64,000 nt of DNA from a phage. Where the stretch lies: the NCBI GenBank assembly GCA_029742005.1, contig GCA_029742005.1_4113.1; one strand, written 5' to 3'. Below, one piece after another: positions 2,286 to 14,162 of this stretch. A program made the position numbers and the translations under genes. Under the pieces are notes generated by a model. It was not told the DNA's origin and made no database searches. It was given only the letters and a program-made list of their open reading frames with translations. The number at the start of each line of letters is the position of its first letter. Within the stretch, counting starts at the first letter, position 1.

Positions 2286-2304
2286 AAATATTATCACAGT
2301 ACTA

Positions 2305-2333: not shown

Positions 2334-2366
2334 AGATTTTATCAAGACAACTAAGAGGAAATTAAA

Positions 2367-2711
2367 ATGGCTAATATCAACACTATCGCAAAACAAAATA
2401 TCAACCTGTCTTCTGTTGAAGTTGTACATATTGCCGCTCGGCGTTGGTTCCAGGCTTCATATGGTAACACTTATTTCTCTTTAAGTGTAGACGTAGAAAT
2501 TGATGGTAATTTTATTGAAGTAGTAAACGTGCCGTTCCAATATGGATACGGGGATCACTTTGACACTGTAGCAATGGAAGAATTTAGCAAGGTTATTAAT
2601 ATGGAAGATAAGGAGTTTACACGCGGAACGTACCTTTCACGTTTTTGCCGTGATAATAATATCACTGTTTATAGTTCTGTTAGTGATGTTAAACGCAAAA
2701 AAGATCTTTAA
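2367..2711 (+). CDS. hypothetical protein (paralog of 8255..8578)
   Basis: ORF track; RBS AAGAGGA; shares GNTY..Y..VKRKKD with 8255 ORF. Confidence 0.7.
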   Translation: MANINTIAKQNINLSSVEVVHIAARRWFQASYGNTYFSLSVDVEIDGNFIEVVNVPFQYGYGDHFDTVAMEEFSKVINMEDKEFTRGTYLSRFCRDNNITVYSSVSDVKRKKDL

Positions 2712-2791
2712 TTAGCTTTACTTTATGCAGATACTTTGATATAGTGTCTGCATAGGGGAAAGAAATTAAATTAACTTAAGAGGATAGTATA

Positions 2792-3061
2792 ATGAAAAAT
2801 ATCAGTACTTTAATCGATGCAGGTACACATGTTCGGCGGTCAATGGTTGCAACCAGTACTACAAAACAAGTAGCGAGCGGTTATCTTGTATTTGTGCACG
2901 ATGGTAAACTCCTGGAACGTTCAATCAATTTTGATGTTAAAAACAATTGCCGTTTTATTATCTTTCGCCGTGAACAATATAAGATCGACATTCCAGCGAA
3001 GCCCATTAGCGGGGCGTATAACGTCTATTCATTGTTTGAGCGTCAACCATACACCTATTAA
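2792..3061 (+). CDS. hypothetical protein
   Basis: ORF track; RBS AAGAGGA. Confidence 0.6.
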   Translation: MKNISTLIDAGTHVRRSMVATSTTKQVASGYLVFVHDGKLLERSINFDVKNNCRFIIFRREQYKIDIPAKPISGAYNVYSLFERQPYTY

Positions 3062-3112
3062 TCAAAACATCGTTAGCGGTTGATTTAGGCCGCTTATATT
3101 GAGGATTATACC

Positions 3113-3385
3113 ATGAACGTTAATCAAGTACTGAATGAGATCGAAAGCATCATTAAACCGATGAAGCGTACTGATGCTATGTTAACACCGGAAGAATGCC
3201 GCCTATATGAGCGTTATAGCGTCGAACAAGTCCAGGCAATGGCTATGGCTACCCCAGCCGTTAAACCGCCTGAGAATGCGTTACAGGACGTTACAGGGGA
3301 TTATATCATCAATCCAGTACTAGGGAAGATGGCTGCAATCACCGAAGATCAACAAGACTACTTAAGCCAGTACTTAAAAGGTTAA
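3113..3385 (+). CDS. hypothetical protein
   Basis: ORF track; RBS GAGGA. Confidence 0.65.
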   Translation: MNVNQVLNEIESIIKPMKRTDAMLTPEECRLYERYSVEQVQAMAMATPAVKPPENALQDVTGDYIINPVLGKMAAITEDQQDYLSQYLKG

Positions 3386-3390
3386 TTAAT

Positions 3391-3600
3391 ATGCTTACTG
3401 TACAGGATAAGATCGACATCTTAAAGGTTAATATGTATGTGATTGATGCCGTACCTGGTAAAGTATTTGCATACGATGATAGTACTGTAAGCGATTTCTA
3501 CTATAGCCAGGACGTGGGGGATCTTTCTGTACAGTCGGTTATTGAAAACGTAGTTAATGCAGCGTATGAGCATTTACTTTCAAATAGTACTTGCAATTAG
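3391..3600 (+). CDS. hypothetical protein
   Basis: ORF track; 3' end overlaps next promoter. Confidence 0.55.
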   Translation: MLTVQDKIDILKVNMYVIDAVPGKVFAYDDSTVSDFYYSQDVGDLSVQSVIENVVNAAYEHLLSNSTCN

Positions 3601-3650
3601 TTTTTAAACGCGTATAATGTTTTACATGAAGGGGAGAAATGATTCTCCCC
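3591..3650 (+). promoter_or_regulatory. early promoter plus 5' stem-loop (PeSL-like)
   Basis: TTGCAA, TATAAT 3613-3618, hairpin GGGGAGAAATGATTCTCCCC 3631-3650. Confidence 0.6.
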
Positions 3651-3669
3651 ACTAATTAAGGAATATGAA

Positions 3670-3816
3670 ATGAAAGCATCAAAAAAGAGTAATACCAAGA
3701 AAGCATGTTCACCTTTCGCTGGGGTATTCCCTTTACGTTTCGTTGATGAAGTAGTTTCCTACCCGCCGGGCCTTACTCCTGAGATGGTAGAAAGTTTGCG
3801 TAAATCTAAAAAATAG
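3670..3816 (+). CDS. small hypothetical protein (48 aa)
   Basis: hand-called; RBS AAGGAA; below track cutoff. Confidence 0.45.
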   Translation: MKASKKSNTKKACSPFAGVFPLRFVDEVVSYPPGLTPEMVESLRKSKK

Positions 3817-3819
3817 TAC

Positions 3820-3879
3820 TTGCAATTAGTTTTTAGTACTGTATAATAGTTTACATGAAGGGGAGAAATGGTTCTCCCC
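3820..3879 (+). promoter_or_regulatory. early promoter plus 5' stem-loop (PeSL-like)
   Basis: TTGCAA 3820-3825, TATAAT 3842-3847, hairpin GGGGAGAAATGGTTCTCCCC. Confidence 0.6.
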
Positions 3880-3897
3880 AATAACAGGAGAATCAAA

Positions 3898-4050
3898 ATG
3901 AAACAATACAACGCTCGGTTTGATGTTACTATCGGTAACGGCAAAGGTCAATTCTCTTTCAGTACTCGCAAAAGTTATACAGAAAACTTCCTGCGTAATT
4001 GTGCACTGACCGCCGCACAAATTAAACATTATTTTCAGGCTAAAAAATGA
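3898..4050 (+). CDS. small hypothetical protein (50 aa)
   Basis: track ORF 3868..4050 starts inside the stem-loop; start moved to ATG 3898 behind RBS AGGAG. Confidence 0.5.
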   Translation: MKQYNARFDVTIGNGKGQFSFSTRKSYTENFLRNCALTAAQIKHYFQAKK

Positions 4051-4136
4051 AAACATTAGCTTACTATAGTTCGGCCCTGGTCGGTGCATTGATCGCGGCG
4101 TTGTTAGTAACCTATCTATTCTTTATGGTGATTTAA
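4047..4136 (+). CDS. putative small hydrophobic peptide (29 aa)
   Basis: hand-called; ATGA overlap with upstream stop; single hydrophobic helix. Confidence 0.3.
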   Translation: MKTLAYYSSALVGALIAALLVTYLFFMVI

Positions 4137-4280
4137 ATGAATCCAACAGGTTTAAACTATAAAAGTTGTTCGGCGTTTACGAAAGCAAATAAAGCGAATG
4201 CACGTAAAGCGAAAGTACAGGAATACATCAAGCAAGGCATGACGCGAAAGGCGGCGATTCTAAAAGCTAAAAATAAATGA
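4137..4280 (+). CDS. small basic protein (47 aa)
   Basis: hand-called; TAAATG overlap; Lys-rich. Confidence 0.35.
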   Translation: MNPTGLNYKSCSAFTKANKANARKAKVQEYIKQGMTRKAAILKAKNK

Positions 4281-4470
4281 AAAAAGTGGTTGACTCCGGT
4301 CAGCCATTTTGCTATTATATATTCATTGAGAGATAGCTCACTAGCCCACAGGGTGCATAAGTGTATCTATTATATAAGTATTGAGTACTGAAAACTATTT
4401 TTAAAAAGTACTTGCAAACTATCTCAATTGGCGTATAATGTTTTACATCGCAAGGGGAAACGGTTTCCCC
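4281..4470 (+). repeat. intergenic cassette copy 1: hairpin, conserved core, early promoter, 5' stem-loop
   Basis: AAAAAG-TGGTTGACTCCGGTCAGCCA-TTTT hairpin; core AGCCCACAGGGTGCATAAGTGTATC; TTGCAA 4412-4417, TATAAT 4434-4439. Confidence 0.6.
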
Positions 4471-4490
4471 TGGTAATAAGGAAACGAATC

Positions 4491-4832
4491 ATGACTATCT
4501 CAATTGCTCAATCTAACTTTGAAAACGAAATCATCGCCCAGGCACTGCGTTTAAATGATGGTCGGGCCGAAATTAATTACGGTTTCAATTCAGGCGGTTG
4601 CGAAAAATATCAGTACTTTGTAACGGCTGATGGCGGTGTCCTGGGGATCAATACAGTTATTGTAAACATTCAGAAAATTAATTTCAATGATCCAGAAGAT
4701 AGCCAGTTTTACATCACGGGTGTGAACGTGAACTATGAGGATGATTATCTAACTGATGATCACACTGGCGAGAAGTTAGAAAGTGCATACGGTGAAGATG
4801 ATTATCAGTCCGGTCCAGAAGATTTTGAATAA
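4491..4832 (+). CDS. hypothetical protein (acidic C-terminus)
   Basis: track ORF 4428..4832 starts in the promoter; start moved to ATG 4491 behind RBS AAGGAA. Confidence 0.7.
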   Translation: MTISIAQSNFENEIIAQALRLNDGRAEINYGFNSGGCEKYQYFVTADGGVLGINTVIVNIQKINFNDPEDSQFYITGVNVNYEDDYLTDDHTGEKLESAYGEDDYQSGPEDFE

Positions 4833-4846
4833 TATTAAAAAATAGT

Positions 4847-4906
4847 TTGACAATAGATTATAGTACTGTATAATAAGTTACATCAAGGGGAGAAATGATT
4901 CTCCCC
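4847..4906 (+). promoter_or_regulatory. early promoter plus 5' stem-loop (PeSL-like)
   Basis: TTGACA 4847-4852, 17-nt spacer, TATAAT 4870-4875, hairpin GGGGAGAAATGATTCTCCCC. Confidence 0.65.
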
Positions 4907-4927
4907 CACTAACAAAGAGAAAACAAA

Positions 4928-5140
4928 ATGGCTAATATCTGCACTGTACTGAAAAATGCAAAACAAGTTTTATTTTCTGATCATGAAAATTTCAACAAGG
5001 ATATTACGGGCGTTCGGAATATCAAAGATGTAAAAAGTGTTATGGGTATCTATTGCAATATGAAACGTGTTGGTACGTTCGGCGACAAAGTACTATACCA
5101 GGCAGGGGATTATAACTTTACATTAACCATTATCAATTAA
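4928..5140 (+). CDS. hypothetical protein
   Basis: ORF track; RBS AAGAGA. Confidence 0.65.
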   Translation: MANICTVLKNAKQVLFSDHENFNKDITGVRNIKDVKSVMGIYCNMKRVGTFGDKVLYQAGDYNFTLTIIN

Positions 5141-5158
5141 AATATATTACCAGTACTA

Positions 5159-5187
5159 TTGACAATGATTGATAGTACTGGCATAAT
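5159..5187 (+). promoter_or_regulatory. class-2 promoter
   Basis: AGTACTATTGACA..GATAGTACTGGCATAAT. Confidence 0.55.
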
Positions 5188-5231
5188 AACTTTTATCAAC
5201 AGTAGTTAACTTAACAAAAGAGAGAAACAAA

Positions 5232-5375
5232 ATGATCGCACTAGATTCATTCATCGACGCAGTACTGGCAAAAACTGGCGAGGATCTGACCGCAGAACAA
5301 TACGCGATGATCGAACAATGTCAGCAAAACGGTAAATCGGTGAAAGATACTGTTAAGATTATCCGCAAGATGTAA
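5232..5375 (+). CDS. small hypothetical protein (47 aa)
   Basis: hand-called; RBS AAGAGAGA; followed by terminator. Confidence 0.5.
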   Translation: MIALDSFIDAVLAKTGEDLTAEQYAMIEQCQQNGKSVKDTVKIIRKM

Positions 5376-5380
5376 GATTA

Positions 5381-5410
5381 TAGCCCACTGGTTAACGCTG
5401 GTGGGCTATA
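5381..5410 (+). terminator. terminator-like hairpin containing a Chi octamer
   Basis: TAGCCCAC..GTGGGCTA stem; GCTGGTGG at 5397-5404; weak T-tract. Confidence 0.5.
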
Positions 5411-5677
5411 ATTCATTACCCTATACAATGCCAGTACTAAACCGTTTATCTCGTTAGAATGCGTTACAGGACGTTTGACAATGATTAGCATGAAATCAGT
5501 ACAAAAACAAATAGAAACATTATCAAAAATTAAACGTAAACAATACTCCTTAGAATATAATATCAATGGTAACTATCATCTAATGAAAGAAAATAATTTT
5601 ATAGTCATTGATGAATCATTGCAAATTATTAGTATAGTACTGAAAGCATTAATCAATGACAGAAAAAAGTTAAAATA

Positions 5678-5935
5678 ATGGCTGTAGGATTCGCGAAAGA
5701 CGGGGCCGAGCAAGACGAGATTAACGCAGTGATTCAGGCCGCCGTAAACCACGCTAGAAAGCAAATTAACGCACAAATAGAATCACTGATACATTGCCGC
5801 GACTGCGGCGATATAATCCCTGAGAAACGACGCCAGGCCGTTAAGGGATGTAAGTACTGCATAACTTGCCAGGAGGATCATGATAGTACTTTTAAACGTC
5901 CCCCGCGTAATTGTTGGCATAGATCTATGAGATAA
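5678..5935 (+). CDS. TraR/DksA-like C4 zinc-finger protein (putative)
   Basis: ORF track; CxxC..CxxC pattern (CRDC..CKYC) in a basic ~85-aa protein. Confidence 0.5.
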   Translation: MAVGFAKDGAEQDEINAVIQAAVNHARKQINAQIESLIHCRDCGDIIPEKRRQAVKGCKYCITCQEDHDSTFKRPPRNCWHRSMR

Positions 5936-5941
5936 AAAGTA

Positions 5942-5999
5942 TTGACAGTACTATCCAGTAGTGTTATAGTACTTACATCAAGGGGAAACATCTTCCCCT
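5942..5999 (+). promoter_or_regulatory. early promoter plus 5' stem-loop (PeSL-like)
   Basis: TTGACA 5942-5947, TATAGT, hairpin AGGGGAAACATCTTCCCCT. Confidence 0.55.
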
Positions 6000-6016
6000 A
6001 CTAAGAGGAAATGAAA

Positions 6017-6205
6017 ATGGAAAACTTATCAAGTATTTTAGTACAAGATGATTTCGGTAATCCTGGAAGTGCTATCATTGTTCGGGGTAATAAAGCAACA
6101 TTTGTTATTGCTGGTGGACCTGTACAGCGTAGCATTAAAAACAATGCCGTTACTATTAATAATGTACGCTATCGCTTAGATAAAGAATTGATTCATAAAC
6201 TGTAA
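6017..6205 (+). CDS. hypothetical protein
   Basis: ORF track frame; second ATG 6017 better spaced from RBS AAGAGGA. Confidence 0.6.
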   Translation: MENLSSILVQDDFGNPGSAIIVRGNKATFVIAGGPVQRSIKNNAVTINNVRYRLDKELIHKL

Positions 6206-6232
6206 TATTAATTTAATAGAGGATAACAATAA

Positions 6233-6556
6233 ATGTACATTCATACTACTATCACAAAGGAAGTCCGTTGCCAGTTCGAAAGTATTCCGGGCGTATGTTT
6301 CATCACTGGTACGTTTTCCCCTGGTGATCGTGATAATCCAGTACTGTTACAATTACGCCATCCATCATGGGATAAAGCATTTGATCTACCGTTGAATGAA
6401 TTCGCAACTACTGCTGAAAAGTACATTAAAAATATTCGCGAGAATGATCGACTATTCATTAATGCTTTTAGTGATTCCGCGTTAAGCGAGATCCACGGCG
6501 TATTGGTTGCAATCATGGAATCAATGGAGAAAACTAAATTCAAACAAGGTGAATAA
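6233..6556 (+). CDS. hypothetical protein
   Basis: ORF track; RBS AGAGGA. Confidence 0.65.
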   Translation: MYIHTTITKEVRCQFESIPGVCFITGTFSPGDRDNPVLLQLRHPSWDKAFDLPLNEFATTAEKYIKNIRENDRLFINAFSDSALSEIHGVLVAIMESMEKTKFKQGE

Positions 6557-6562
6557 AAACTA

Positions 6563-6622
6563 TTGACAATGTAATCTAGTACTGTATAATAAGTTACATG
6601 AAGGGGAGAAATGATTCTCCCC
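6563..6622 (+). promoter_or_regulatory. early promoter plus 5' stem-loop (PeSL-like)
   Basis: TTGACA, TATAAT 6585-6590, hairpin GGGGAGAAATGATTCTCCCC. Confidence 0.65.
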
Positions 6623-6639
6623 ACTGAGAGGAAAGAAAA

Positions 6640-6852
6640 ATGCAAGGTCAACTAATCGTTCGTAAATGGTCTGATACTAACGAAAAACCGTGGGATGTAC
6701 AATACATCGGACCGGACGGTGTTTCACGTTATCAACCTGGCGTAACGCATAGTACTGAGCAATATGCCGCCGCTCACCGCGAACGCCTGTTAGAATCCAT
6801 GAAACAGGGATTCTGTGAAAAATTCATTCAAGATCATTGGCTGAAAGATTAA
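6640..6852 (+). CDS. hypothetical protein
   Basis: ORF track; RBS GAGAGGAAAG. Confidence 0.65.
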   Translation: MQGQLIVRKWSDTNEKPWDVQYIGPDGVSRYQPGVTHSTEQYAAAHRERLLESMKQGFCEKFIQDHWLKD

Positions 6853-6869
6853 TATAAGGAGTACAGCTT

Positions 6870-6962
6870 ATGCAAATGAATCCGATGATTATTGTTTTAG
6901 CTGTACTTATGATCATTCATGCAATTGTAGAAGTATTAACGCAATCAGGAGTAATAAAATGA
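6870..6962 (+). CDS. putative small membrane peptide (30 aa)
   Basis: hand-called; RBS TAAGGAG; hydrophobic. Confidence 0.4.
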   Translation: MQMNPMIIVLAVLMIIHAIVEVLTQSGVIK

Positions 6963-7132
6963 TTCAAGTAGAATTATCAGTACTGAAAGATCTGTTTTAT
7001 CGGATTGGTACTACTGGCGAATATCCGAAGGGTGATAATGCAAAACTTTACGTATCACTCGACTTATGGCAACGCGAACAATTAGCAACAGCGTGGCGTA
7101 AAGGTAAAGCAGATCGCGAGGTGAAAGCATGA
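6959..7132 (+). CDS. small hypothetical protein (57 aa)
   Basis: hand-called; ATGA start/stop overlap. Confidence 0.45.
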   Translation: MIQVELSVLKDLFYRIGTTGEYPKGDNAKLYVSLDLWQREQLATAWRKGKADREVKA

Positions 7133-7278
7133 AAGAATTCTTATTCGAAGTAGTGTTCCAGGGCGTAGGAAGTAACCAACTGATTCGATCAAGTGGTTAC
7201 AATGTTAACCAGGCATGGAATAACATTAAACAAATGTACCCGAACGCTATCACCTATCGCAACCCAAAACAAGTTTAA
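7129..7278 (+). CDS. small hypothetical protein (49 aa)
   Basis: hand-called; ATGA overlap. Confidence 0.4.
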   Translation: MKEFLFEVVFQGVGSNQLIRSSGYNVNQAWNNIKQMYPNAITYRNPKQV

Positions 7279-7494
7279 AAAGAATTGAAAAAGGGATTGA
7301 CTCCGGTCAGTCCCTTTGCTATTATATATTCATTGAAACAATCTAGCCCACAGGGTGCATAAATGTATCTATTGTTTGCTGGTGGCTAGTACTATCAAGT
7401 ACTGAAAACTATTTTTAAAAAGTACTTGCAAAGTATCACGATAAGCGTATAATGTTTTACATCAGGACGGGGAACGAAACAAGTAACTCCCCGT
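7279..7494 (+). repeat. intergenic cassette copy 2
   Basis: GGGATTGACTCCGGTCAGTCCC hairpin, conserved core, Chi GCTGGTGG 7378-7385, TTGCAA/TATAAT 7447-7452, stem-loop ACGGGGA..TCCCCGT. Confidence 0.6.
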
Positions 7495-7543
7495 TAAGTA
7501 GTCCAGGAGTAAGACATACGAAAACCTCCCCTGATAAAATAGT

Positions 7544-7571
7544 TTGACAATAGAAATTAAACGAGTATAAT
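7544..7571 (+). promoter_or_regulatory. sigma70-like promoter
   Basis: TTGACA 7544-7549, 16-nt spacer, TATAAT 7566-7571. Confidence 0.6.
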
Positions 7572-7601
7572 ACTTACATCAACCACAAAGAGGAATACAA
7601 A

Positions 7602-7802
7602 ATGAAACATTTTACTTTCGGTGTAGTAGGCTTTACAGTATCCAGCGGCGTTTATAAATCAGAACGCGGTGCTAAAAATGCAGCAAGTCGGGCGTATGGT
7701 TCACAGCGTGACTTACAGGTCGGTTATATTAGTAACATTAATAACATGTTTATTCCTGTTTCACAGCGTAAAGCGGGTAACATGAAATGGGAAACAATTT
7801 GA
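7602..7802 (+). CDS. hypothetical protein
   Basis: ORF track; RBS AAGAGGAA. Confidence 0.65.
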   Translation: MKHFTFGVVGFTVSSGVYKSERGAKNAASRAYGSQRDLQVGYISNINNMFIPVSQRKAGNMKWETI

Positions 7803-7811
7803 TAAAATAGT

Positions 7812-7870
7812 TTGACAATAGTTTTTAGTACTGTATAATAGTTTACATCAAGTGGGGAATAGTTCCCCAC
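7812..7870 (+). promoter_or_regulatory. early promoter plus 5' stem-loop (PeSL-like)
   Basis: TTGACA 7812-7817, TATAAT, hairpin GTGGGGAATAGTTCCCCAC. Confidence 0.65.
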
Positions 7871-7891
7871 CTAACAAAGAGAGAAATTAAA

Positions 7892-8167
7892 ATGCGGATT
7901 CTACTGACAGCTAACGAAATCGAGCAAGTACTGACTACTAACCTGGAAGACTGGAAACGTGATGCAGATATCCAGGCGGTTCAATGCCTTAACGATAAGT
8001 TAACGCCAGATGACTTAAGCACGATTGTTGATCCACAATTTTATGAAGATATTCACGACATGGATTTAAGCGTAGAGGATGTACTTGATAAGCACTACAT
8101 TGATACTGATTTACAGGTTTACGGTCGTAAAAACTTTATCACTATTCACGACATTTACAATACTTAA
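7892..8167 (+). CDS. hypothetical protein (acidic)
   Basis: ORF track; RBS AAGAGAGA. Confidence 0.7.
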   Translation: MRILLTANEIEQVLTTNLEDWKRDADIQAVQCLNDKLTPDDLSTIVDPQFYEDIHDMDLSVEDVLDKHYIDTDLQVYGRKNFITIHDIYNT

Positions 8168-8170
8168 GTA

Positions 8171-8231
8171 TTGACAAAGTATCTTAGTACTGTATAATAG
8201 TTTACATCAAGTGAGGGGAATGGTTCCCCTC
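8171..8231 (+). promoter_or_regulatory. early promoter plus 5' stem-loop (PeSL-like)
   Basis: TTGACA 8171-8176, TATAAT 8193-8198, hairpin GAGGGGAATGGTTCCCCTC. Confidence 0.65.
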
Positions 8232-8254
8232 CTAACAAAAAGAGAGAAATTAAA

Positions 8255-8578
8255 ATGGCTATGATCCTTACCCAGAAAGTAGAAATGAAAATTGTAACTT
8301 CCTTTGACATTAAAGTTAATCGGTGGACTGATAGCCACGGCAATACTTACCACTCATGCTACGTGTCTGCATTGATTGGTGACCGCTGGGAAGACCTGGG
8401 ACATGAAACCTTTACTTACGGTTACGGTACACAAGGCGAATACACGGGCTTGGAGATCATTAAAGAAACTGTAATAGGTTTCAACCCGAAAGAGAAAGTA
8501 CTACACAGAATTGAGGATGAGATCAACAAAGAAATTACAGTTCGTTACTACGATGTAAAACGTAAGAAAGACATGTAA
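8255..8578 (+). CDS. hypothetical protein (paralog of 2367..2711)
   Basis: ORF track; shared GNTY..YGYG..VKRKKD signature. Confidence 0.7.
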   Translation: MAMILTQKVEMKIVTSFDIKVNRWTDSHGNTYHSCYVSALIGDRWEDLGHETFTYGYGTQGEYTGLEIIKETVIGFNPKEKVLHRIEDEINKEITVRYYDVKRKKDM

Positions 8579-8600
8579 TAGAATCCATTTAAAGTACTAT

Positions 8601-8629
8601 TTGACATTACCCAGATAGTACTTTATAAT
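8601..8629 (+). promoter_or_regulatory. sigma70-like promoter
   Basis: TTGACA 8601-8606, 17-nt spacer, TATAAT 8624-8629. Confidence 0.6.
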
Positions 8630-8677
8630 AGACTCTAACTTGTAGTACTAATTAACTTAACTAATAGGATGTACACC

Positions 8678-9073
8678 ATGATTACTAAATTCTTCGCTAC
8701 CCGTGAACAAGCTCGCATCGTTGCCCGTGAAGAAGGTGAAACATTTAAAGACATGGGCAAAGATGCACCGAAAGGACAACGCTGGGCGGTACAGTTCAAA
8801 GAGATCTCTGATATTGTGAATTCACCTGAACCAGTACTTACTGAAGCAGAACTAAAGCAAGCTCAAGAACTGGCTGAAGTACTGAACGCTCAAGATGACT
8901 TCTTGGAAGGTTCTGATATTCAAGTACAAGTGAATAGTAATGCATGGACTCACGCGGATCACCTGGCAAACCTTAAGCGTCCAAGTGAACTGATTCGTAA
9001 CCAGAAAGAGATCCGTCATGACCGTAAAGGAAACCGTGTAACAGTATACAGTAAACGCCGCCAGGTTATCTAA
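8678..9073 (+). CDS. hypothetical protein
   Basis: track frame 8669..9073; ATG 8678 better spaced from RBS AGGAT. Confidence 0.7.
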   Translation: MITKFFATREQARIVAREEGETFKDMGKDAPKGQRWAVQFKEISDIVNSPEPVLTEAELKQAQELAEVLNAQDDFLEGSDIQVQVNSNAWTHADHLANLKRPSELIRNQKEIRHDRKGNRVTVYSKRRQVI

Positions 9074-9095
9074 TAACTTGCAGTACTAACAACAC

Positions 9096-9122
9096 GGCGG
9101 GTTCAGTTCCCGCCTTTTTTAT
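9096..9122 (+). terminator. rho-independent terminator
   Basis: GGCGGG-TTCAGTT-CCCGCC then T6. Confidence 0.75.
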
Positions 9123-9135
9123 AGGATAAACTAAA

Positions 9136-9390
9136 ATGATGAAGGTACAACTATCTAAAGATAATATCTTGCGGGTACACTATAAAGCACCACAGAGAAT
9201 CATCACAAAGGCCGTACAGCTTGCTAATGAGTTTATTAATGGTAGTCTATTACCCAGGAAGTTAAGCAACGGAAAACTACGTGTTATCGATGTAGACACT
9301 AACAATAGAATAGTAATTGAGAGTACTGGAAAAATTAATCTATATGAACACCAACAATACAATAAAAAAATAAAACTAATATCACGTTGA
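9136..9390 (+). CDS. hypothetical protein
   Basis: ORF track; RBS AGGA; AT-rich. Confidence 0.45.
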   Translation: MMKVQLSKDNILRVHYKAPQRIITKAVQLANEFINGSLLPRKLSNGKLRVIDVDTNNRIVIESTGKINLYEHQQYNKKIKLISR

Positions 9391-9415
9391 CAGTACTCAA
9401 TTGTTTTAGTATTAT
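9387..9415 (+). promoter_or_regulatory. sigma70-like promoter (duplicated at 9666)
   Basis: TTGACAGTACTCAATTGTTTTAGTATTAT. Confidence 0.55.
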
Positions 9416-9446
9416 GTATCTATACCAACACAGAGAGAGAAACAAA

Positions 9447-9665
9447 ATGAAATTATCTAAAATCGAAAAGAAAACTATTGATGAAGCAGTGAAGCACGGT
9501 TATACCTTTCGTAATGATTCACATTTTACCAATTTTCAACAAGGGTATCGTACTATTAAAAAACTAATTGACAAAGGTTTATTAGTTGAAGTCAATAACG
9601 GCAATGGCATTGAGTATCAACCAACACAAGACGCATTATCACTAAAGAAATATTCTATTATCTAA
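9447..9665 (+). CDS. hypothetical protein
   Basis: track ORF 9387..9665 starts at the -35 box; start moved to ATG 9447. Confidence 0.6.
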   Translation: MKLSKIEKKTIDEAVKHGYTFRNDSHFTNFQQGYRTIKKLIDKGLLVEVNNGNGIEYQPTQDALSLKKYSII

Positions 9666-9694
9666 TTGACAGTACTCAAATGTTTTAGTACTAT
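9666..9694 (+). promoter_or_regulatory. sigma70-like promoter (near-identical copy of 9387)
   Basis: TTGACAGTACTCAAATGTTTTAGTACTAT. Confidence 0.55.
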
Positions 9695-9722
9695 GTACGC
9701 ATACCAACACGGGGAAAACAAA

Positions 9723-9950
9723 ATGATTACTTTAGAAAAACGTATCAAAGAGACTACAACGCTGGTGGAACTGTTAACCGTTCTTAAATGCCGGGTAACT
9801 CCATTCAGTACACCGGACTTTATCAACATGGTGGACGTTAACGGTCGATATCGTATTGCGGTCGAACAAGGTACGGCAAAAGTATTCAGTACTAAAAATA
9901 CGCGTGAAGTATTCCACGCAGTTCAAGTAAAAAAAAGTAGTTGCCATTGA
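9723..9950 (+). CDS. hypothetical protein
   Basis: track ORF 9666..9950 starts at the -35 box; start moved to ATG 9723. Confidence 0.6.
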   Translation: MITLEKRIKETTTLVELLTVLKCRVTPFSTPDFINMVDVNGRYRIAVEQGTAKVFSTKNTREVFHAVQVKKSSCH

Positions 9951-9997
9951 TAGTAAAGTACTGTAATATAGTTTCATTAACTCAAGGAGTCAACACA

Positions 9998-10582
9998 ATG
10001 CGTAACTATACTAAATTCATCCGTTCACTTCATGCAATGGAAACCAACAAAGAGATCCTTTCAGCTTGTCGGTTAGCTGGACTGGAGATCGTCGGTGCGG
10101 GTTCTTCCCGTATTGTATTCGCTTTAAATGATCGGTTAGTGATTAAGGTCGCGAATTGTGATGCGGGTGTAGAACAAAATGAAACTGAATGTAAGGTATG
10201 GAATTTTTTAGATTATGACCGTCCGCACCTTAAACAGTTCTTTGCCAAGGTGCATATGCATTTATGCGATCCTGATAATCTGTTTATTGTTATGGATCGT
10301 TTGAGTACTGCAAGCAAAGGCAGTGTAAAGCATGTAAACGCGTGCAATGAGTTAAAGTACAATATTAAACGTAATACGGTAGAACGCCAACACCATTTCG
10401 CTGATGCTCTCAATCACGTTGATGATACATTATCCACACTAACGATAAGAGATATCAGAAAACAGAATATCGGCCAGGATCGCAACGGCTTGATTAAAGT
10501 ACTTGATTACGGTTTAACCCGCAATATCTGGAATCAGTACTATAAAAAACGTGATGTTAACGCGATAACTATAACACGATAA
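9998..10582 (+). CDS. putative protein kinase (eukaryotic-like kinase fold)
   Basis: VIKV (VAIK-like), IRDIRKQNIG (HRD-loop-like), DYG (DFG-like) in order; start moved to ATG 9998 behind RBS AAGGAG. Confidence 0.6.
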   Translation: MRNYTKFIRSLHAMETNKEILSACRLAGLEIVGAGSSRIVFALNDRLVIKVANCDAGVEQNETECKVWNFLDYDRPHLKQFFAKVHMHLCDPDNLFIVMDRLSTASKGSVKHVNACNELKYNIKRNTVERQHHFADALNHVDDTLSTLTIRDIRKQNIGQDRNGLIKVLDYGLTRNIWNQYYKKRDVNAITITR

Positions 10583-10784
10583 AAAAGATTAAAAAAGGGA
10601 TTGACTCCAGTCAGTCCCTTTGCTATTATATATTCATTGAGAGATAACTCACTGACCCATAGGGTGCGGAAGTGTATCTATTATATAAGTATTCAGTACT
10701 GAAAACTATTTGATAAAAAGTACTTGCAAACTATCTCAAAGAGCGTATAATGTTTTATATCGAGAGGGGGAAATGGTTTCCCCT
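10581..10784 (+). repeat. intergenic cassette copy 3
   Basis: GGGATTGACTCCAGTCAGTCCC hairpin, conserved core, TTGCAA 10724-10729, TATAAT 10746-10751, stem-loop GAGGGGGAAATGGTTTCCCCTC. Confidence 0.6.
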
Positions 10785-10803
10785 CAAGTCCAGGAGATAC
10801 ACC

Positions 10804-11067
10804 ATGAACACTATCGAAATCACTATCAATGCACACGTATACGACAACGTAGTACTGCAAACTACTATGACCGCTAACGATACCAGTACTTTGCGGAATA
10901 CTGTTATTAGTGCTGTATGTGCCGCTATCGGTGATGTCGCCCTGGAAAATGCAAAACACGTAAACGATGGTTTCACTATGTGCAAACGTGATAACGCAAA
11001 ACATATCATCGTAGAAGGTTACGGCGGTGTAGAATATAATGTTTATATGAAAAAAGTACTTGCATAG
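10804..11067 (+). CDS. hypothetical protein
   Basis: track ORF 10750..11067 starts in the -10 box; start moved to ATG 10804 behind RBS CAGGAGA. Confidence 0.65.
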   Translation: MNTIEITINAHVYDNVVLQTTMTANDTSTLRNTVISAVCAAIGDVALENAKHVNDGFTMCKRDNAKHIIVEGYGGVEYNVYMKKVLA

Positions 11068-11115
11068 TACTGAATAAAGCGTATAATGTTTTGCATAGGG
11101 GGAGATATCCTCCCC
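11060..11115 (+). promoter_or_regulatory. early promoter plus 5' stem-loop (PeSL-like)
   Basis: TTGCAT, TATAAT 11082-11087, hairpin GGGGGAGATATCCTCCCCC. Confidence 0.6.
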
Positions 11116-11134
11116 CACTAAAAGGAGTATTAAA

Positions 11135-11359
11135 ATGGCTAACTTTGATGAACTGATGCGGGAAGTAGCTAACCTGGCAGAAGAGAAGAAATCATTCGAT
11201 TCTATCTATAACACCGCTCACCGTGATTCAGTACTGGCATGTAACCAGGATCAAAAAGATGAACTAATCGCCACATATCATGAAGCATGGAAGTACTACC
11301 GACAATGGGAGAAAGAAGAAAGCGAGTCTACCATCGAAGGTATCAATAATCTAATCTAA
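11135..11359 (+). CDS. hypothetical protein
   Basis: ORF track; RBS AAAGGAG. Confidence 0.7.
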   Translation: MANFDELMREVANLAEEKKSFDSIYNTAHRDSVLACNQDQKDELIATYHEAWKYYRQWEKEESESTIEGINNLI

Positions 11360-11378
11360 AAGTTTTATTTCAGTACTA

Positions 11379-11407
11379 TTGACATAGCTTGATAGTACTG
11401 ATATGAT
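11379..11407 (+). promoter_or_regulatory. class-2 promoter
   Basis: AGTACTATTGACA..GATAGTACTGATATGAT. Confidence 0.5.
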
Positions 11408-11434
11408 AACTTTACTAACTAAAGGGGAAACATA

Positions 11435-11692
11435 ATGGAACAGTTCACACAATATCGGGTAAATCCTCAAGCGATGGCCTACGTAGAAGACCATAAAACG
11501 TTACCAGTACTGCAACCAGTTAAAGGCCATATCTATCGTGCAATGTCGTGGAGTGCGGCCCAGGATGGATATAAAACCGTCGCCGTGGGGATGTATTGCG
11601 GGAATGGTGAATGGTTTGATCCTAACAATCCGATTGCACTTGACAGTACTGAAAAAATGAAATGGGCCGACTACATCGAAGATATTTCATAA
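11435..11692 (+). CDS. hypothetical protein
   Basis: ORF track; RBS AAAGGGGAA. Confidence 0.7.
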   Translation: MEQFTQYRVNPQAMAYVEDHKTLPVLQPVKGHIYRAMSWSAAQDGYKTVAVGMYCGNGEWFDPNNPIALDSTEKMKWADYIEDIS

Positions 11693-11698
11693 AAACTA

Positions 11699-11760
11699 TT
11701 TGACAGTACTAACCAGTAATGTATAATGTTTTACATAGAGCGGGGGAATAGTTCTCCCGC
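11699..11760 (+). promoter_or_regulatory. early promoter plus 5' stem-loop (PeSL-like)
   Basis: TTGACA 11699-11704, 17-nt spacer, TATAAT, hairpin GCGGGGGAATAGTTCTCCCGC. Confidence 0.65.
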
Positions 11761-11782
11761 CAATAGTTTGGAGTAAAACATT

Positions 11783-11983
11783 ATGTCTATCGCTATCGCC
11801 CTGGTTGAAGTACTGAAAGAAGCTAAAGCCAACCTTATCGATGTACAGATTAAGGAATTGCAAAACGGCTTAATCGGCTGTACTTGTACCGCTGGTGGAG
11901 CGGCAGACTATCGAGAACACGAATCACTCGAATCACTGGTTCGGTATCTTACCATGATCGTTGATGATTGGAGAATCATCTAA
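11783..11983 (+). CDS. hypothetical protein
   Basis: ORF track; RBS GGAG. Confidence 0.65.
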   Translation: MSIAIALVEVLKEAKANLIDVQIKELQNGLIGCTCTAGGAADYREHESLESLVRYLTMIVDDWRII

Positions 11984-12208
11984 CAAAAAAGAATAAAAAA
12001 GGGATTGACTCCGGTCAGTCCCTTTGCTATTATATACGCATAGACAAAAACTAGCCCACTGGGTGCATAAGTGTATCCAAAATATATAGTTAATAACGGT
12101 GAGTAACTATCTGCTGGTGGAGTGAAAACTATTAATAAAAAAAGTATTGACAAAGTATATCAGTACTGCGATAATGTATCTCGTAGGGCGGCAATGGTGC
12201 GACGGCCC
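11984..12208 (+). repeat. intergenic cassette copy 4 (most diverged)
   Basis: GGGATTGACTCCGGTCAGTCCC hairpin, core GCCCACTGGGTGCATAAGTGTATC, Chi 12113-12120, TTGACA/GATAAT promoter, GC-rich stem-loop. Confidence 0.55.
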
Positions 12209-12228
12209 ACAAAGTTAGGAGATTCAAA

Positions 12229-12561
12229 ATGACTACTTCAATCGCTATCGTTAAAGCTTTCATCCGTACTAATGTTTCCTCTGTATTCATCGACGGCCTC
12301 GACCGTAACGTAGAATACTCAATCATTATCGCACAAACGGCAAACGGTTCTCGGTACATCCTGAATGATAGTGAAGCAAATCACTACTACTTCACTAAAG
12401 CCACTGGCTTTAAACGCATCGATGCTGATGTAGTATACGCTAAGATGAATAAGCTGGTAGATAAGATTAACGCTAAAGGTACTATAGATTTACAGTACTG
12501 GACCGAAACCGATCCAGAATATGGATCTCACCGCTACCTGAATCCAGGTATTAAAATGTAA
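12229..12561 (+). CDS. hypothetical protein
   Basis: ORF track; RBS TAGGAGA. Confidence 0.7.
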   Translation: MTTSIAIVKAFIRTNVSSVFIDGLDRNVEYSIIIAQTANGSRYILNDSEANHYYFTKATGFKRIDADVVYAKMNKLVDKINAKGTIDLQYWTETDPEYGSHRYLNPGIKM

Positions 12562-12568
12562 AAAGTAC

Positions 12569-12630
12569 TTGCATAGTACTTAGATTCATGTATAATGTTT
12601 TACATAGAGAGGGGGAAATGGTTCTCCCTC
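12569..12630 (+). promoter_or_regulatory. early promoter plus 5' stem-loop (PeSL-like)
   Basis: TTGCAT 12569-12574, TATAAT 12591-12596, hairpin GAGGGGGAAATGGTTCTCCCTC. Confidence 0.6.
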
Positions 12631-12650
12631 CTAAATTAAGGAGTTTTATC

Positions 12651-13052
12651 ATGACCTTCTCAATCACTTCCTTCGCTGACGTTTTAGTACTGGCTCGGAC
12701 TTTTGGTAAAGATGCACTGGAGTACGCTGTAAGTAATGGCACTATCCAACCGGAACAGTGCCGCATCATTGGAAACTGCAAACGTTGGGCGGTATCCAAT
12801 ACTATTGCACTGGAAAACTTCAACGATGGCAACAATGAATATTCTGTTGATGCAGTATTCGAAGCCGTAGACCTGGGCGGTATCTATAACACTAACCTGA
12901 ATGATGTGCGTATCGTTCGCACTGGCTTCGGTGCTTATGATGTATCTATCCGTGAAGCTATGGACAAGGGATACATTAGCAAGGACCAGTTAGCTTACAT
13001 CATGCAGCAAACTAAGGAGCGTAACGAAGCCCGTACTATCTTAGGGTTGTAA
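12651..13052 (+). CDS. hypothetical protein
   Basis: track ORF 12588..13052 starts in the promoter; start moved to ATG 12651 behind RBS AAGGAG. Confidence 0.7.
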   Translation: MTFSITSFADVLVLARTFGKDALEYAVSNGTIQPEQCRIIGNCKRWAVSNTIALENFNDGNNEYSVDAVFEAVDLGGIYNTNLNDVRIVRTGFGAYDVSIREAMDKGYISKDQLAYIMQQTKERNEARTILGL

Positions 13053-13120
13053 GCGTTACACATCACCAAACATCATAGGCCGCCTTGTAGCGGCCTTAAC
13101 TATATCAGGAGTACATACAC

Positions 13121-13330
13121 ATGATCTATACAGTATATAGCGTTCTAGGTACTATTGCAGGCGTACACGATAACGTCGATAGTGCTATGCGTACAGTACT
13201 GCAACAGGTTCCACTAAAGCCTAAGACCATTAAGCAGATGACAGCACGATTAACCAGGGCGACGGCTGGCGTGGAAGTATGGCAGGACTATGGGGATACA
13301 CAGATAATCGTAAGCGTAACGAAGGATTAA
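13121..13330 (+). CDS. hypothetical protein
   Basis: ORF track; RBS CAGGAG. Confidence 0.6.
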   Translation: MIYTVYSVLGTIAGVHDNVDSAMRTVLQQVPLKPKTIKQMTARLTRATAGVEVWQDYGDTQIIVSVTKD

Positions 13331-13561
13331 TGCGTAAAAGGATTTAGTACTGAATCAAAAAAAAGTCAAGGCATTTTTTTCATGCGTCGAAAAAAAACTT
13401 AACCAGTACACTATCACGCATGAAATAATTTTGACCAGTGATTATATCTCTTGCCCTAAAGGGCGGGTAATGTCTTAGCGAGCATATTGGAGTTCTTGGG
13501 TAGGACAAAATTATTTCTTGTGCTATAATTATATCGAATGTAATCATAGAAAGGAGTCCCT

Positions 13562-13759
13562 ATGCGTATTTTAACTGAAGAAGAGCACAACCACACACTC
13601 ATATCCAACATGGCATATATCCTACATATGTCACATATCCGTGGTATTGCATATAAGCGTGAATTGGTTATGAAACTTTTCATAGGAACTAACTATCAAG
13701 AAAAGTATATCGAACTATACTTACAAGAATTACGAAGGGACATAAAAGGAAGACGATGA
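13562..13759 (+). CDS. fam1 small protein (first array member)
   Basis: ORF track; RBS AAAGGAG; motif FIGTNYQEKY. Confidence 0.65.
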   Translation: MRILTEEEHNHTLISNMAYILHMSHIRGIAYKRELVMKLFIGTNYQEKYIELYLQELRRDIKGRR

Positions 13760-13956
13760 AAATGCGTATTTTAAATAAAGAAGATTATCAAGAACTGTTA
13801 TGTAAAAACATGGTAAAGATTTATAACACAGACACAAACTTAGAACGAATTGAGTTATACCTTTTGATTACATTGGGAACAAGCTATCAGAGAAGATGGG
13901 TGATTCAATATATGGATGCATTGAAAAATGAAATATTGTCCACGAGGAAACAATGA
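13756..13956 (+). CDS. fam1 small protein
   Basis: ORF track; ATGA overlap; motif LGTSYQRRW. Confidence 0.6.
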   Translation: MKMRILNKEDYQELLCKNMVKIYNTDTNLERIELYLLITLGTSYQRRWVIQYMDALKNEILSTRKQ

Positions 13957-14162
13957 AAACTATAACACGAACCCAATCATACGGTCTTATCTTGAGATAC
14001 ATGGACTTAATGTTGGATATCAGCAAAGACCTTCCTAAAACTGCAATTGAAGTTACAAGAGCAGAGATCCGCATGTTGGCTGTACTGAACACAAACCATC
14101 AGGAAGAGTATGTTGATGATTGGATTAATTTTTTAATTCAAGATATAAAGAGTAAACTATGA
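13953..14162 (+). CDS. fam1 small protein
   Basis: ORF track; ATGA overlap; motif LNTNHQEEY. Confidence 0.6.
   Translation: MKTITRTQSYGLILRYMDLMLDISKDLPKTAIEVTRAEIRMLAVLNTNHQEEYVDDWINFLIQDIKSKL

Follow-up and report, generated by a model that had tools for sequence, protein, structure and literature searches.

The promoter-early stem-loops (PeSLs) of T4-type phages are small intergenic cassettes located among the ORFans of a hyperplastic early region (Arbiol et al. 2010, PMC2839356; Comeau et al. 2014, PMC4122927). They combine a strong sigma-70-like promoter, preceded by an AT-rich upstream tract, with an overlapping G/C-rich stem-loop that terminates upstream transcription, end in a Shine-Dalgarno (SD) sequence and a start codon, and provide repeated homology at the junctions of insertions and deletions (indels). 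In phage HK022, the putL site gives rise to an RNA of about 70 nucleotides with two stem-loops, which begins at +2/+3 of the PL transcript and makes RNA polymerase (RNAP) resistant to terminators without additional factors (PMC9378689). The Pseudomonas jumbo phage PA5oct expresses two abundant non-coding RNAs (ncRNAs), ncRNA001 and ncRNA002, from its long terminal repeat (PMC7318152). Here we analyze a 64,000-nucleotide stretch of phage DNA (GenBank assembly GCA_029742005.1, contig GCA_029742005.1_4113.1; referred to as the window), in which an intergenic cassette occurs four times on the plus strand, at positions 4283–4470, 7290–7492, 10594–10783, and 11998–12208. Sequence comparisons suggest that it is a cassette of the known, PeSL-like kind, which carries a previously undescribed, clade-wide structured leader or small RNA (sRNA) domain.

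The window derives from an Asteriusvirus-like (121Q/PBECO4/Rak2-like) jumbo coliphage, because the best of the 80 phage records matched by positions 4000–12500 in a megablast search are Escherichia phages JP4, BF17, CRJP21, and 121Q, with 91–93% identity and patchy coverage. Rak2/121Q-like jumbo phages are popular candidates for therapy, and about 80% of their genes and nearly all of their regulation are uncharacterized. We found no paper describing the RNA domain, and the genome papers of CBB, GAP32, and related phages list only RpoD-like promoters, upstream-promoter (UP) elements, and terminators. Literature searches on Asteriusvirus, Alcyoneusvirus, and Mimasvirus phages likewise turned up neither a transcriptome nor an sRNA study.

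Each cassette begins 2–14 nucleotides after a stop codon (the preceding open reading frames (ORFs) end at 4280, 7278, 10582, and 11983) and contains, in order, a hairpin that includes the -35 box of promoter P1, the RNA domain of about 52 nucleotides, a UP-like element, promoter P2, a 5′ stem-loop, a ribosome-binding site (RBS), and a gene. The flanking ORFs encode 47–213 residues, mostly of unknown function. A 31-nucleotide probe reaching from the hairpin to the -10 box matches exactly four sites in the window, with 0–3 mismatches, whereas 0.00 matches are expected from 100 shuffled sequences, and a repeat search recovers the cassettes as a four-copy family of 93 nucleotides (D11). In the first copy, the stop codon (4278–4280) runs into an A-run (4280–4285) and the hairpin AAAGTGGTTGAC-TCCG-GTCAGCCATTTT (4283–4310), which has a 12-bp stem and a predicted stability of -16.5 kcal/mol (z = -5.6). 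The -35 box lies in the 5′ arm of the hairpin (4290–4295), P1 reads TTGACT-17-TGcTATTAT (4290–4318, with the extended -10 box at 4310–4318), and the predicted start is the A of CAT at 4325, the seventh nucleotide after the -10 box. The RNA domain (4324–4375) is followed by the UP-like A/T tract TGAAAACTATTTTTAAAAAGTA (4389–4410) with AGTACT on both sides, P2 (TTGCAA-16-TATAAT, 4412–4439), the 5′ stem-loop of the P2 transcript (4454–4470), and an RBS with the ATG (4491) of a 113-residue ORF.

The remaining copies have the same layout. In the second, the hairpin AAAGGGATTGAC-TCCG-GTCAGTCCCTTT (7290–7317; 12-bp stem, -19.1 kcal/mol, z = -6.2) and P1 (TTGACT-17-TGcTATTAT, 7297–7325, predicted start A7332) precede the RNA domain (7331–7377), a UP-like element with P2 (7403–7453; TTGCAA-16-TATAAT at 7426–7453), and the P2 5′ stem-loop (7469–7492). 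An ORF no longer follows this P2: CCAGGAG (CCAGGAGTAAGACAT), an RBS-like remnant identified by eye at about 7504–7510, is orphaned and lacks a start codon, and a third promoter (TTGACA-16-TATAAT, 7544–7571) leads to a 66-residue ORF (7602–7802, ATG at 7602) that is absent from phages G17 and Turkey5. The third copy consists of a hairpin with a TCCA loop (10594–10621), P1 (10601–10629, predicted start A10636), the RNA domain (10635–10686), and a segment (10700–10806) that holds the UP-like element, P2 (10724–10751), the 5′ stem-loop (10766–10783), an RBS, and the ATG at 10804. In the fourth copy, the hairpin (11998–12025), P1 (12005–12033, predicted start A12040), and the RNA domain (12039–12085) are separated by a longer, diverged spacer from P2 (TTGACA-17-GATAAT, 12147–12175); the segment 12123–12231 holds the UP-like element, P2, the 5′ stem-loop (12186–12208), an RBS, and the ATG at 12229.

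Most of the anatomy proposed in the original prediction is borne out by this survey. All four copies were found in intergenic spaces of the plus strand at the places given there, directly after stop codons, with an A-run in front of P1 and TTGACT inside a 12-bp stem closed by a TCCG or TCCA loop. The TTGACT-17-TATTAT arrangement recurs at 4290, 7297, 10601, and 12005, in each case with a TG-extended -10 box, and the compensatory nature of the stem changes was confirmed, as copy 1 differs from copies 2–4 by two double compensatory exchanges and one change from G-C to G·U. The trailing early promoter and stem-loop are also real, but they are generic, with at least 13 further copies within positions 1–13000 (families D1, D4, and D5), and the generic P2 transcripts start with CAU followed by a stem-loop (D1 and D4).

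The cassettes resemble PeSLs in having a strong promoter behind an AT-rich tract, a stable overlapping hairpin that is predicted to end upstream transcription, an intergenic position with an SD sequence and a start codon at the 3′ end, and indel junctions within the repeats, here of the P2 type. They differ from PeSLs in that they belong to a Rak2-like jumbo phage rather than a classical T4-type phage, contain tandem promoters, and place the -35 box of P1 within the hairpin. Furthermore, the RNA domain between the promoters and the embedded Chi octamers (GCTGGTGG) are not found in PeSLs.

The RNA domain begins at the predicted +1 of P1 and is formed by helix H1, a CUA linker, helix H2, the dinucleotide GC, a polypurine pentamer, and a tail with the pattern U..UC.UAU. 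In copy 1, H1 (UGAG/CUCA with the loop AGAUAG, 4327–4340) is followed by the linker (4341–4343), H2 (GCCC-ACA-GGGU, 4344–4354), and the tail GC-AUAAG-U-GUA-UC-UAU (GC-AUAAG-UGUAUCUAU, 4355–4370); the domain is matched by the covariance model described below with 52.6 bits (E = 1e-11). The domain of copy 3 (62 bits, E = 2e-14) has the same H1 stem with the loop AGAUAA, H2 of ACCC-AUA-GGGU, and the tail GC-GGAAG-UGUAUCUAU. In copies 2 and 4, H1 is reduced around an A-rich stretch. The reduced H1 of copy 2 is CAUUGAAACAAUCUA and its core is AGCCCACAGGGUGCAUAAAUGUAUC (39.6 bits, E = 6e-8), whereas copy 4 has a minimal H1, UAG-ACAAAAA-CUA, the core AGCCCACUGGGUGCAUAAGUGUAUC, and a model match restricted to 12045–12085 (31.5 bits, E = 1e-5). 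The conserved core that had been proposed for all four cassettes is present in copies 1, 2, and 4 with 0–1 mismatch, but the corresponding sequence of copy 3 (GACCCATAGGGTGCGGAAGTGTATC) has five differences. The sequence CUAUCUC in the P2 spacer of copies 1 and 3 is complementary to the beginning of the P1 RNA (GAGAGAUAG), and the two are joined when RNAfold is applied to the long P1 transcript (approximately 4328–4336 with 4420–4426 and 10639–10647 with 10732–10738, placed by eye); this pairing is probably not general, because it is missing from copies 2 and 4.

A search of the window against Rfam 15 returned no family at gathering score, and a search of positions 4200–12400 with E-values up to 10 returned nothing on the RNA domain and four weak matches that look like chance. 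Homologs were found in related phages: a blastn search with 124 nucleotides of copy 2 gave 304 places in 65 records, all from Rak2-like phages of 310–386 kb save one 52-kb Klebsiella phage record. The hosts belong to the genera Escherichia, Klebsiella, Salmonella, Erwinia, Cronobacter, Pectobacterium, Serratia, and Yersinia. The Escherichia phage records contain four places each, or eight when both terminal repeats are included, and these places lie inside the annotated direct terminal repeats. The equivalent region of relatives with mapped genome ends is located within a direct terminal repeat of about 20–22 kb (annotated at 1–22456 in CBB, 1–21525 in vB_Ec-M-J, 1–20030 in Muenster, and 1–19736 in Kae01).

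The early regions of G17, RaK2, CBB, GAP32, fHe-Yen9-03, and Munch were scanned with nhmmer and regular expressions, which revealed a common unit: a sigma-70 promoter and, at a fixed distance, CAU, a hairpin, CUA, RCCC-NNN-GGGU, and GC. A covariance model with two 4-bp helices (R1), built from 22 diverse units and applied with a threshold of E < 0.01, detects 101 units, 86 of them distinct, in the window and 16 loci of Rak2-like phages. These comprise jumbo phages of E. coli, Klebsiella, Salmonella, Cronobacter, Pectobacterium, and Yersinia, as well as related viral contigs. The search for the element in other phage genomes that the original prediction had called for thus located it in every related jumbo-phage genus examined. 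Units number about 4–12 per terminal repeat and are confined to the early region of the repeat. Pattern scans of bacterial genomes gave chance matches only, such as a coding-region match in Sulfurovum, and the three contigs matched in metagenomes all belong to the same phage clade. The region of PA5oct that encodes its terminal-repeat ncRNAs was considered as a possible homolog and rejected (best covariance model match of 10 bits, E ~0.8).

Every blastn high-scoring pair between window positions 1–14000 and the genomes of CBB and GAP32 falls on the four modules, and no coding DNA aligns. This distribution bears on the alternative that the cassette serves recombination alone, as a strict PeSL would, so that the core has no function of its own and the similarity of the copies reflects gene conversion and a promoter and terminator role. 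The scaffold would be in keeping with the indel junctions described below, with the Chi sites that adjoin the core in copies 2 and 4, and with the PeSLs of T4-type phages, which recombine and form mini-circles (PMC2839356, PMC4122927). However, gene conversion within a genome cannot explain the retention of 50 nucleotides across genera in which the flanking genes are unalignable, the compensatory changes in H1 are left without a cause, and the junctions lie in P2-type repeats rather than in the module of P1 and the core. We regard a pure scaffold as quite improbable.

The comparison of units identifies H1 as a variable stem that covaries and starts at +3 in nearly all units. Its purine-rich loops of 6–8 nucleotides fall into three classes, G(A/C)GAAA (GNGAAA), AGAUAA/G, and A(A)GAACAA. 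All four base pairs of H1 change on both sides, and one of them is CG in 30, AU in 21, GC in 15, and another combination in 1 of the sequences. Pairing is possible in 94.7% of the H1 cells, in comparison to 74% in shuffled alignments (0 of 500 reached the observed value) and 10–50% when the partner strand is slid, and the H1 pairs are the top four column pairs by mutual information, with no other long-range covariation in the domain alignment. Since the H1 alignment was fitted to the model, an alignment-free test was added, in which the mean best stem is 3.47 bp versus 2.83 ± 0.08 in shuffled sequences and the mean minimum free energy is -2.86 versus -0.69 ± 0.12 kcal/mol. H2 (RCCC-NNN-GGGU) is nearly invariant. 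Its outer pair is A-U in 45 and G·U in 37 of the 86 units, its inner pair shows two changes from CG to UA and four to U·G, and its loop has three or four nucleotides of free sequence, with both lengths present within one genome. The frequent G·U pairs and the variable spacing of the half-sites point to a strand-specific structure of the sense RNA rather than a double-stranded DNA site.

A fixed position relative to the promoter, invariant CCC and GGGTGC elements, and occurrence in both orientations are also properties that a DNA operator might have, so the core CCCNNNGGGTGC could be imagined as a double-stranded site, about 20–35 bp downstream of the start, at which a phage regulator shuts off or licenses the promoters. 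Nevertheless, the half-sites are spaced by 3 or 4 bp in the same genome, the alternation of the outer pair between A-U and G·U is meaningless in double-stranded DNA, a compensatory change from CCC/GGG to CCU/AGG occurs within one genome, and, as the covariation of H1 demonstrates, the neighboring sequence is recognized in single-stranded form. An operator is therefore very unlikely, and the comparative data make it probable that the domain functions as RNA.

Several other features of the domain were considered and dropped. A third helix, AGA/UCU in the tail, was rejected since its middle pair is A-C in most units, and a pseudoknot between the AGAUAA loop and UAUCU is possible in only one loop class and has no covariation support. 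Coding of a small peptide was dismissed on account of the lack of a conserved start codon or frame. CsrA sites, mimicry of CRISPR repeats (I-E and I-F), MazF ACA sites, and RegB GGAG sites were inspected by eye, and none fits all units.

The hairpin that overlaps the -35 box of P1 is present in about 31 distinct units, with energies from -12.6 to -19.5 kcal/mol. All of these are located on the sense strand, and none is found among the antisense units. In an ungapped alignment of 25 distinct sense units, 99.1% of the hairpin cells pair, three pairs change on both sides, G·U pairs are frequent, and the loops are of the UNCG type, mostly UUCG or UCCG. The plus-strand tail of the hairpin, UUUGCUAUUAU, contains only 3–4 U residues, because the same bases serve as the P1 spacer and extended -10 box. 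Terminators are annotated at hairpin or similar sites in G17, where the annotation is based on ARNOLD, and in GAP32, and the annotators of fHe-Yen9-03 labeled P1 hexamers as promoters. The hairpin is a candidate intrinsic terminator or attenuator, acting at the RNA level on upstream sense transcription and equipped with a short U-tract. The terminators at 834–850 and 1564–1585 have stems of AGCCCACC...GGTGGGCT, which open with AGCCCAC, the same seven bases with which the core starts; the match may reflect an evolutionary connection between the core and a terminator arm, or it may be a coincidence.

Both promoters of the cassette are near the sigma-70 consensus: P1 has its -35 box within the hairpin and an extended -10 box overlapping the U-tract, and P2 (TTGCAA-16-TATAAT or TTGACA-17-GATAAT) is located behind a UP-like tract. 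UP-like elements have been reported at the early promoters of CBB (PMC5259590). All units found with the covariance model are preceded by a sigma-70-like promoter, most of them at the canonical distance. Among 88 distinct units, 71 match TTGACA/TATAAT in at least 10 of 12 positions, 67 have a 17-bp spacer, 50 have a TG-extended -10 box, and in 61 the A of the domain is the seventh nucleotide after the -10 box, which is the canonical +1. These regularities persist despite differing promoter and spacer sequences and the presence of the hairpin in only some of the units. Judged from sequence and comparison, it is very probable that the cassette consists of a terminator, tandem promoters, and a conserved structured 5′ RNA. 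The first of the readings offered in the original prediction, a terminator with tandem promoters, agrees with the hairpin pairing and the near-consensus P1 and P2.

One mechanism of action can be proposed for the RNA. The hairpin would end transcripts arriving from upstream, and P1 would restart transcription and write the domain, which would be the selected product, at the 5′ end of the new RNA. The leader could then act on the polymerase that made it. It could do so unaided, in the manner of HK022 put, or by way of a small factor of phage or host origin that recognizes the H1 loop and H2, as N recognizes boxB in phage lambda. Polymerases started at P1 would ignore the terminators of the early region, those started at P2 would stop at the next hairpin, and in stand-alone antisense copies, which occur in relatives, the same switch would turn an RNA of about 100 nucleotides into antisense read-through. 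We tentatively favor such antitermination by a put- or nut-like modification of RNAP. Terminator-resistant transcription from P1 would suit a region divided by hairpins and the promoterless gene at 9136–9390.

The likeness to put consists of a two-stem-loop RNA at the start of an early sigma-70 transcript, compensatory changes, and an early region containing terminators, and the promoter-proximal location is shared by 61 of the 88 units. However, put RNA has about 70 nucleotides, long stems, and a triplex, occurs in two copies per genome, and binds the zinc-binding domain of the β′ subunit, whereas the domain has two 4-bp helices in 52 nucleotides and 4–12 copies per repeat and does not share the size, architecture, or sequence of put; this comparison is based on the description of put in PMC9378689 and not on a model search. 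The nut sites of lambda and P22 likewise contain a promoter-proximal RNA hairpin in which the stem varies and the purine-rich, GNRA-like loop is conserved, next to a conserved linear or structured element. They differ from the domain in having boxA (CGCUCUUA-like), a GAAAA or GAAGA pentaloop instead of H1 loops of 6–8 nucleotides, and a location 50–250 nucleotides downstream instead of at +3. No N-like partner is evident among the conserved early ORFs, and none of the proteins kept in the terminal repeats of all genera (2792–3061, 8669–9073, and 9136–9390) is an evident RNA-binding antiterminator. The PR′-6S RNA-tR′ segment of lambda, which is the entry point of an antiterminator, resembles the antisense units of the relatives as a stand-alone strong promoter with a short, terminator-ended ncRNA, but Q uses a DNA site and a sigma-dependent pause, whereas the units described here have a covarying RNA structure; a -10-like TAnnnT in the tail of about half of the units is not decisive in this respect.

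The arrangement of the units in related phages offers a second possibility. Among 56 units in seven genomes, 32 are unpaired and in the sense orientation, 16 form eight convergent pairs, and eight are solitary and antisense. The convergent pairs are found near the left end of the repeat in the Yersinia phage, CBB, GAP32, and Munch, and each transcript enters the reverse complement of the core of its partner. A near-consensus Fur-box-like palindrome (such as GATAATGATAATCATTTAC or GCGAATGATTATCATTTCGC) is centered between the convergent pairs in several relatives (at ~7440 and ~1040 in Munch (L021), ~6100 in L019, ~3120 in L016, and ~350 in L001); it is not present in the four copies of the window. 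The solitary antisense units occur in six relatives, including G17, RaK2, and Munch, and in most of them about 20 nucleotides separate the domain from a canonical terminator, with no ORF, so that they look like sRNA genes of about 100 nucleotides. The one in G17 (254–305, minus strand) is composed of the promoter, the domain, AGUACUG, and a terminator, and by homology it would lie about 150–200 bp upstream of window position 1. The window probably starts just downstream of an equivalent antisense element, and the phage is likely to have at least five units per repeat. Phages 121Q and Turkey5 have a fifth sense unit in an insertion of about 320 bp that is missing from the window.

These arrangements would be expected if the unit were a multi-copy sRNA gene. 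P1 would then produce an abundant RNA of about 55–105 nucleotides with the domain acting in trans, free-standing in the antisense units and released in the sense units by processing or by collision with P2-bound polymerase. Such an RNA could titrate or recruit a host or phage protein as a decoy or sponge, possibly against host defense, or could pair with another RNA. The eight antisense units of promoter, domain, spacer, and terminator, the roughly 5–12 units per terminal repeat with near-consensus promoters, and the combination of variable stems with conserved loops, which is typical of protein-binding RNAs, are all consistent with this explanation, and the convergent pairs carry the reverse complement of the partner core, as an anti-sRNA would. 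The terminal-repeat ncRNAs of PA5oct, a distantly related jumbo phage, are also highly expressed (PMC7318152), but they are 236–451 nucleotides long and not homologous to the domain, so the parallel is an analogy only. In contrast to the antisense homologs in relatives, the four copies of the window do not have the form of stand-alone sRNA genes: they and at least 22 of the 32 unpaired sense copies, in which another sigma-70 promoter follows within 20–60 nucleotides, reach a promoter and a gene without a terminator. No target or partner was identified, and the 64-kb window contains no complementary site elsewhere. Barring processing, the domain of the window copies would head a longer transcript as its 5′ leader. 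A small structured RNA had been among the readings of the original prediction, and this part stands as regards the domain of about 52 nucleotides at the predicted P1 start, its covarying hairpin, its retention across genera, and the free-standing copies of about 100 nucleotides in relatives; the four copies of the window have no terminator before P2. An sRNA gene is the main rival of antitermination and only slightly less likely, and an sRNA or decoy would account for the stand-alone antisense copies and the convergent pairs better than antitermination.

Several points weigh against the proposal that the P1 leader modifies RNAP. The eight convergent pairs are not explained by it, and the eight terminator-ended antisense copies, which are more like ordinary sRNA genes, only awkwardly so. 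The placement of P2 within about 100 bp of P1 is not obviously required. The domain is much smaller than put, with two 4-bp helices as opposed to two long stems with a triplex, no boxA-like element was seen by eye in the listed units, and the domain matches no Rfam family. The covariation of H2 is thin, at two double and four single changes, and an alternative helix, GGGUGCR/UNYRUYY, which is mutually exclusive with H2, is paired in 89.7% of cases with one-sided transitions only. The domain alone is thermodynamically weak (z of -0.4 to -1.7). Finally, the start sites, RNA ends, and termination effect are all predictions.

The position of H1 at the very 5′ end of the transcript would also be compatible with a function in messenger RNA stability or processing, with the hairpin 2–3 nucleotides from the triphosphate end and the polypurine tract, which resembles an SD sequence (GGAGG, GGAGA, or AGGAG in many copies), shielding P1 transcripts from decay that depends on the 5′ end or marking a processing site. 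An early RNA of Bacillus phage SP82 is known to carry a polypurine 5′ stabilizer. Nearly all units have H1 beginning at +3, P2 transcripts also begin with CAU and a stem-loop, so that a 5′ hairpin is a general design, and alignment columns 56–60 are almost purely purine. However, a true GGAG is present in only about 40% of the units, the antisense solitary units have no ORF to stabilize, and a stabilizer leaves the invariant RCCC/GGGUGC core and the conserved H1 loop unexplained. We consider this role improbable. It is still more improbable that P1 transcripts form persistent R-loops through the G-rich GGGUGCGGAG and AT-rich DNA and prime replication or recombination of the terminal repeat. 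The RNA does have a G-cluster with AT-rich DNA behind it, the terminal repeats are where the elements lie, and precedents exist in oriF and oriG of T4 and in ColE1, but a repeat holding at least ten origins, with both orientations represented, is implausible, and the conservation of H1 would have no explanation.

The window is collinear with the genomes of G17, 121Q, and Turkey5 apart from indels, the junctions of which overlap promoter and stem-loop repeats. They are located at 5156–5200, at 7544–7582/7800–7848, where the promoters at 7544 and 7812 surround the extra gene 7602–7802, at 8165–8261, and at 10714–10782. The last of these coincides with P2 and the stem-loop of copy 3, and the additional DNA found at this point amounts to about 1.3 kb in G17 and about 0.8 kb in Turkey5. 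No junction with respect to these three phages was seen inside the part formed by P1 and the core. By sequence comparison, the 66-residue gene 7602–7802 with the promoter at 7812 is a clear gain of a cassette between repeated promoters. The recombination module envisaged in the original prediction, which would move gene cassettes, is thus recognizable in the generic promoter and stem-loop part and not in P1 and the core. Two apparent breakpoints in the megablast alignments, bordering copies 1 and 2 (query positions 269 and 3278), arose from the joining of aligned segments; Turkey5 is collinear there. As a side effect, the repeated cassettes may provide homology for the gain and loss of gene cassettes.

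The Chi octamer occurs ten times in the window, compared to an expected 0.23. Eight of the sites are in the first 12.2 kb, seven of them on the plus strand. The plus-strand sites are at 1672, 5397, 6110, 7378, 9761, 11891, 12113, and 60147, and the minus-strand sites are at 1610 and 51508. The octamer at 7378–7385 is immediately 3′ of the domain of copy 2, and the one at 12113–12120 is between the domain and P2 of copy 4. Co-oriented enrichment of Chi, with 6–11 sites per approximately 20 kb versus an expected ~0.1, is also observed in the early terminal-repeat regions of G17, Turkey5, RaK2, CBB, GAP32, Munch, and the Yersinia phage, and not in PA5oct. In the relatives, Chi frequently falls in the spacer between the promoter boxes of a unit. 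The sites point in the direction that is active for RecBCD entering from the downstream end of the repeat, which suggests end protection, targeted recombination at the cassettes, or both.

The cassette provides a concrete, testable map of the early wiring of the terminal repeat, composed of the terminator, P1, the leader RNA, and P2, and the domain, which is absent from Rfam, is the most conserved non-coding element of the early region. If the RNA modifies RNAP or titrates a host factor, it would represent a new, minimal RNA-based means of host takeover and could supply synthetic biology with a compact part. In addition, the recurrence of the cassettes and the orientation of the Chi sites suggest a way in which small early genes are shuffled and one genome end is shielded from RecBCD. 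A more speculative possibility, which we think unlikely in its full extent, is that the domain defines a new phage RNA family, produced from the first nucleotides of immediate-early transcripts of the host polymerase and with 4–12 copies per repeat, that serves as a miniature put- or nut-like element or as a massively expressed decoy. The put- or nut-like version would amount to a two-tier program of early transcription with antisense shut-off, and the decoy version would titrate a host RNA-binding or defense protein. In either case, jumbo phages that depend on host RNAP would gain their first described RNA system of this sort.

The genes in the first 13 kb of the window are small, located on the plus strand, and mostly of unknown function; they include those of a DksA/TraR zinc-finger protein (5678–5935), a kinase-like protein (9941–10582), and an 84-residue protein with a ParE-like toxin domain (9136–9390; PF24732, E = 3e-10). 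A scan for tRNA and tmRNA genes found none in the window. A strong intrinsic terminator, GGCGGGTTCAGTTCCCGCC-TTTTTT, is positioned at 9096–9114, and the ParE-like gene begins 22 nucleotides later with no promoter in between. Since this terminator precedes it and it lacks a promoter of its own, the gene needs read-through for expression. Each of the five other genera examined has the ParE-like gene and the preceding gene of a 134-residue protein (8669–9073) in its terminal repeats, and the two could form a toxin-antitoxin-like pair, the second gene of which depends on read-through.

The palindrome AGTACT, often within CAGTACTG, has 223 sites in the window compared to 21 expected, a 10.4-fold excess that makes it by far the most enriched palindromic hexamer, and several GC-rich hexamers are absent. 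Examples are found at 4384, 4407, 7388, 7398, 7421, 10695, 10719, and 12162. The palindrome typically occurs directly in front of -10 boxes (TAGTACTGTATAAT) and some 15 nucleotides past the conserved RNA domain. In 16 kb of PA5oct, there are only two sites. The palindrome is a candidate protein-binding site, modification site, or restriction-related site. Just beyond the early region of the terminal repeat, arrays of short tandem paralogous genes extend over 13600–20000 and 28300–32500. Four of their repeat families (D2, D8, D9, and D12) have a periodicity of about 440–480 bp, and four others (D7, D10, D13, and D15) have (T)TAGGAACAAACTATCAAGA in common.

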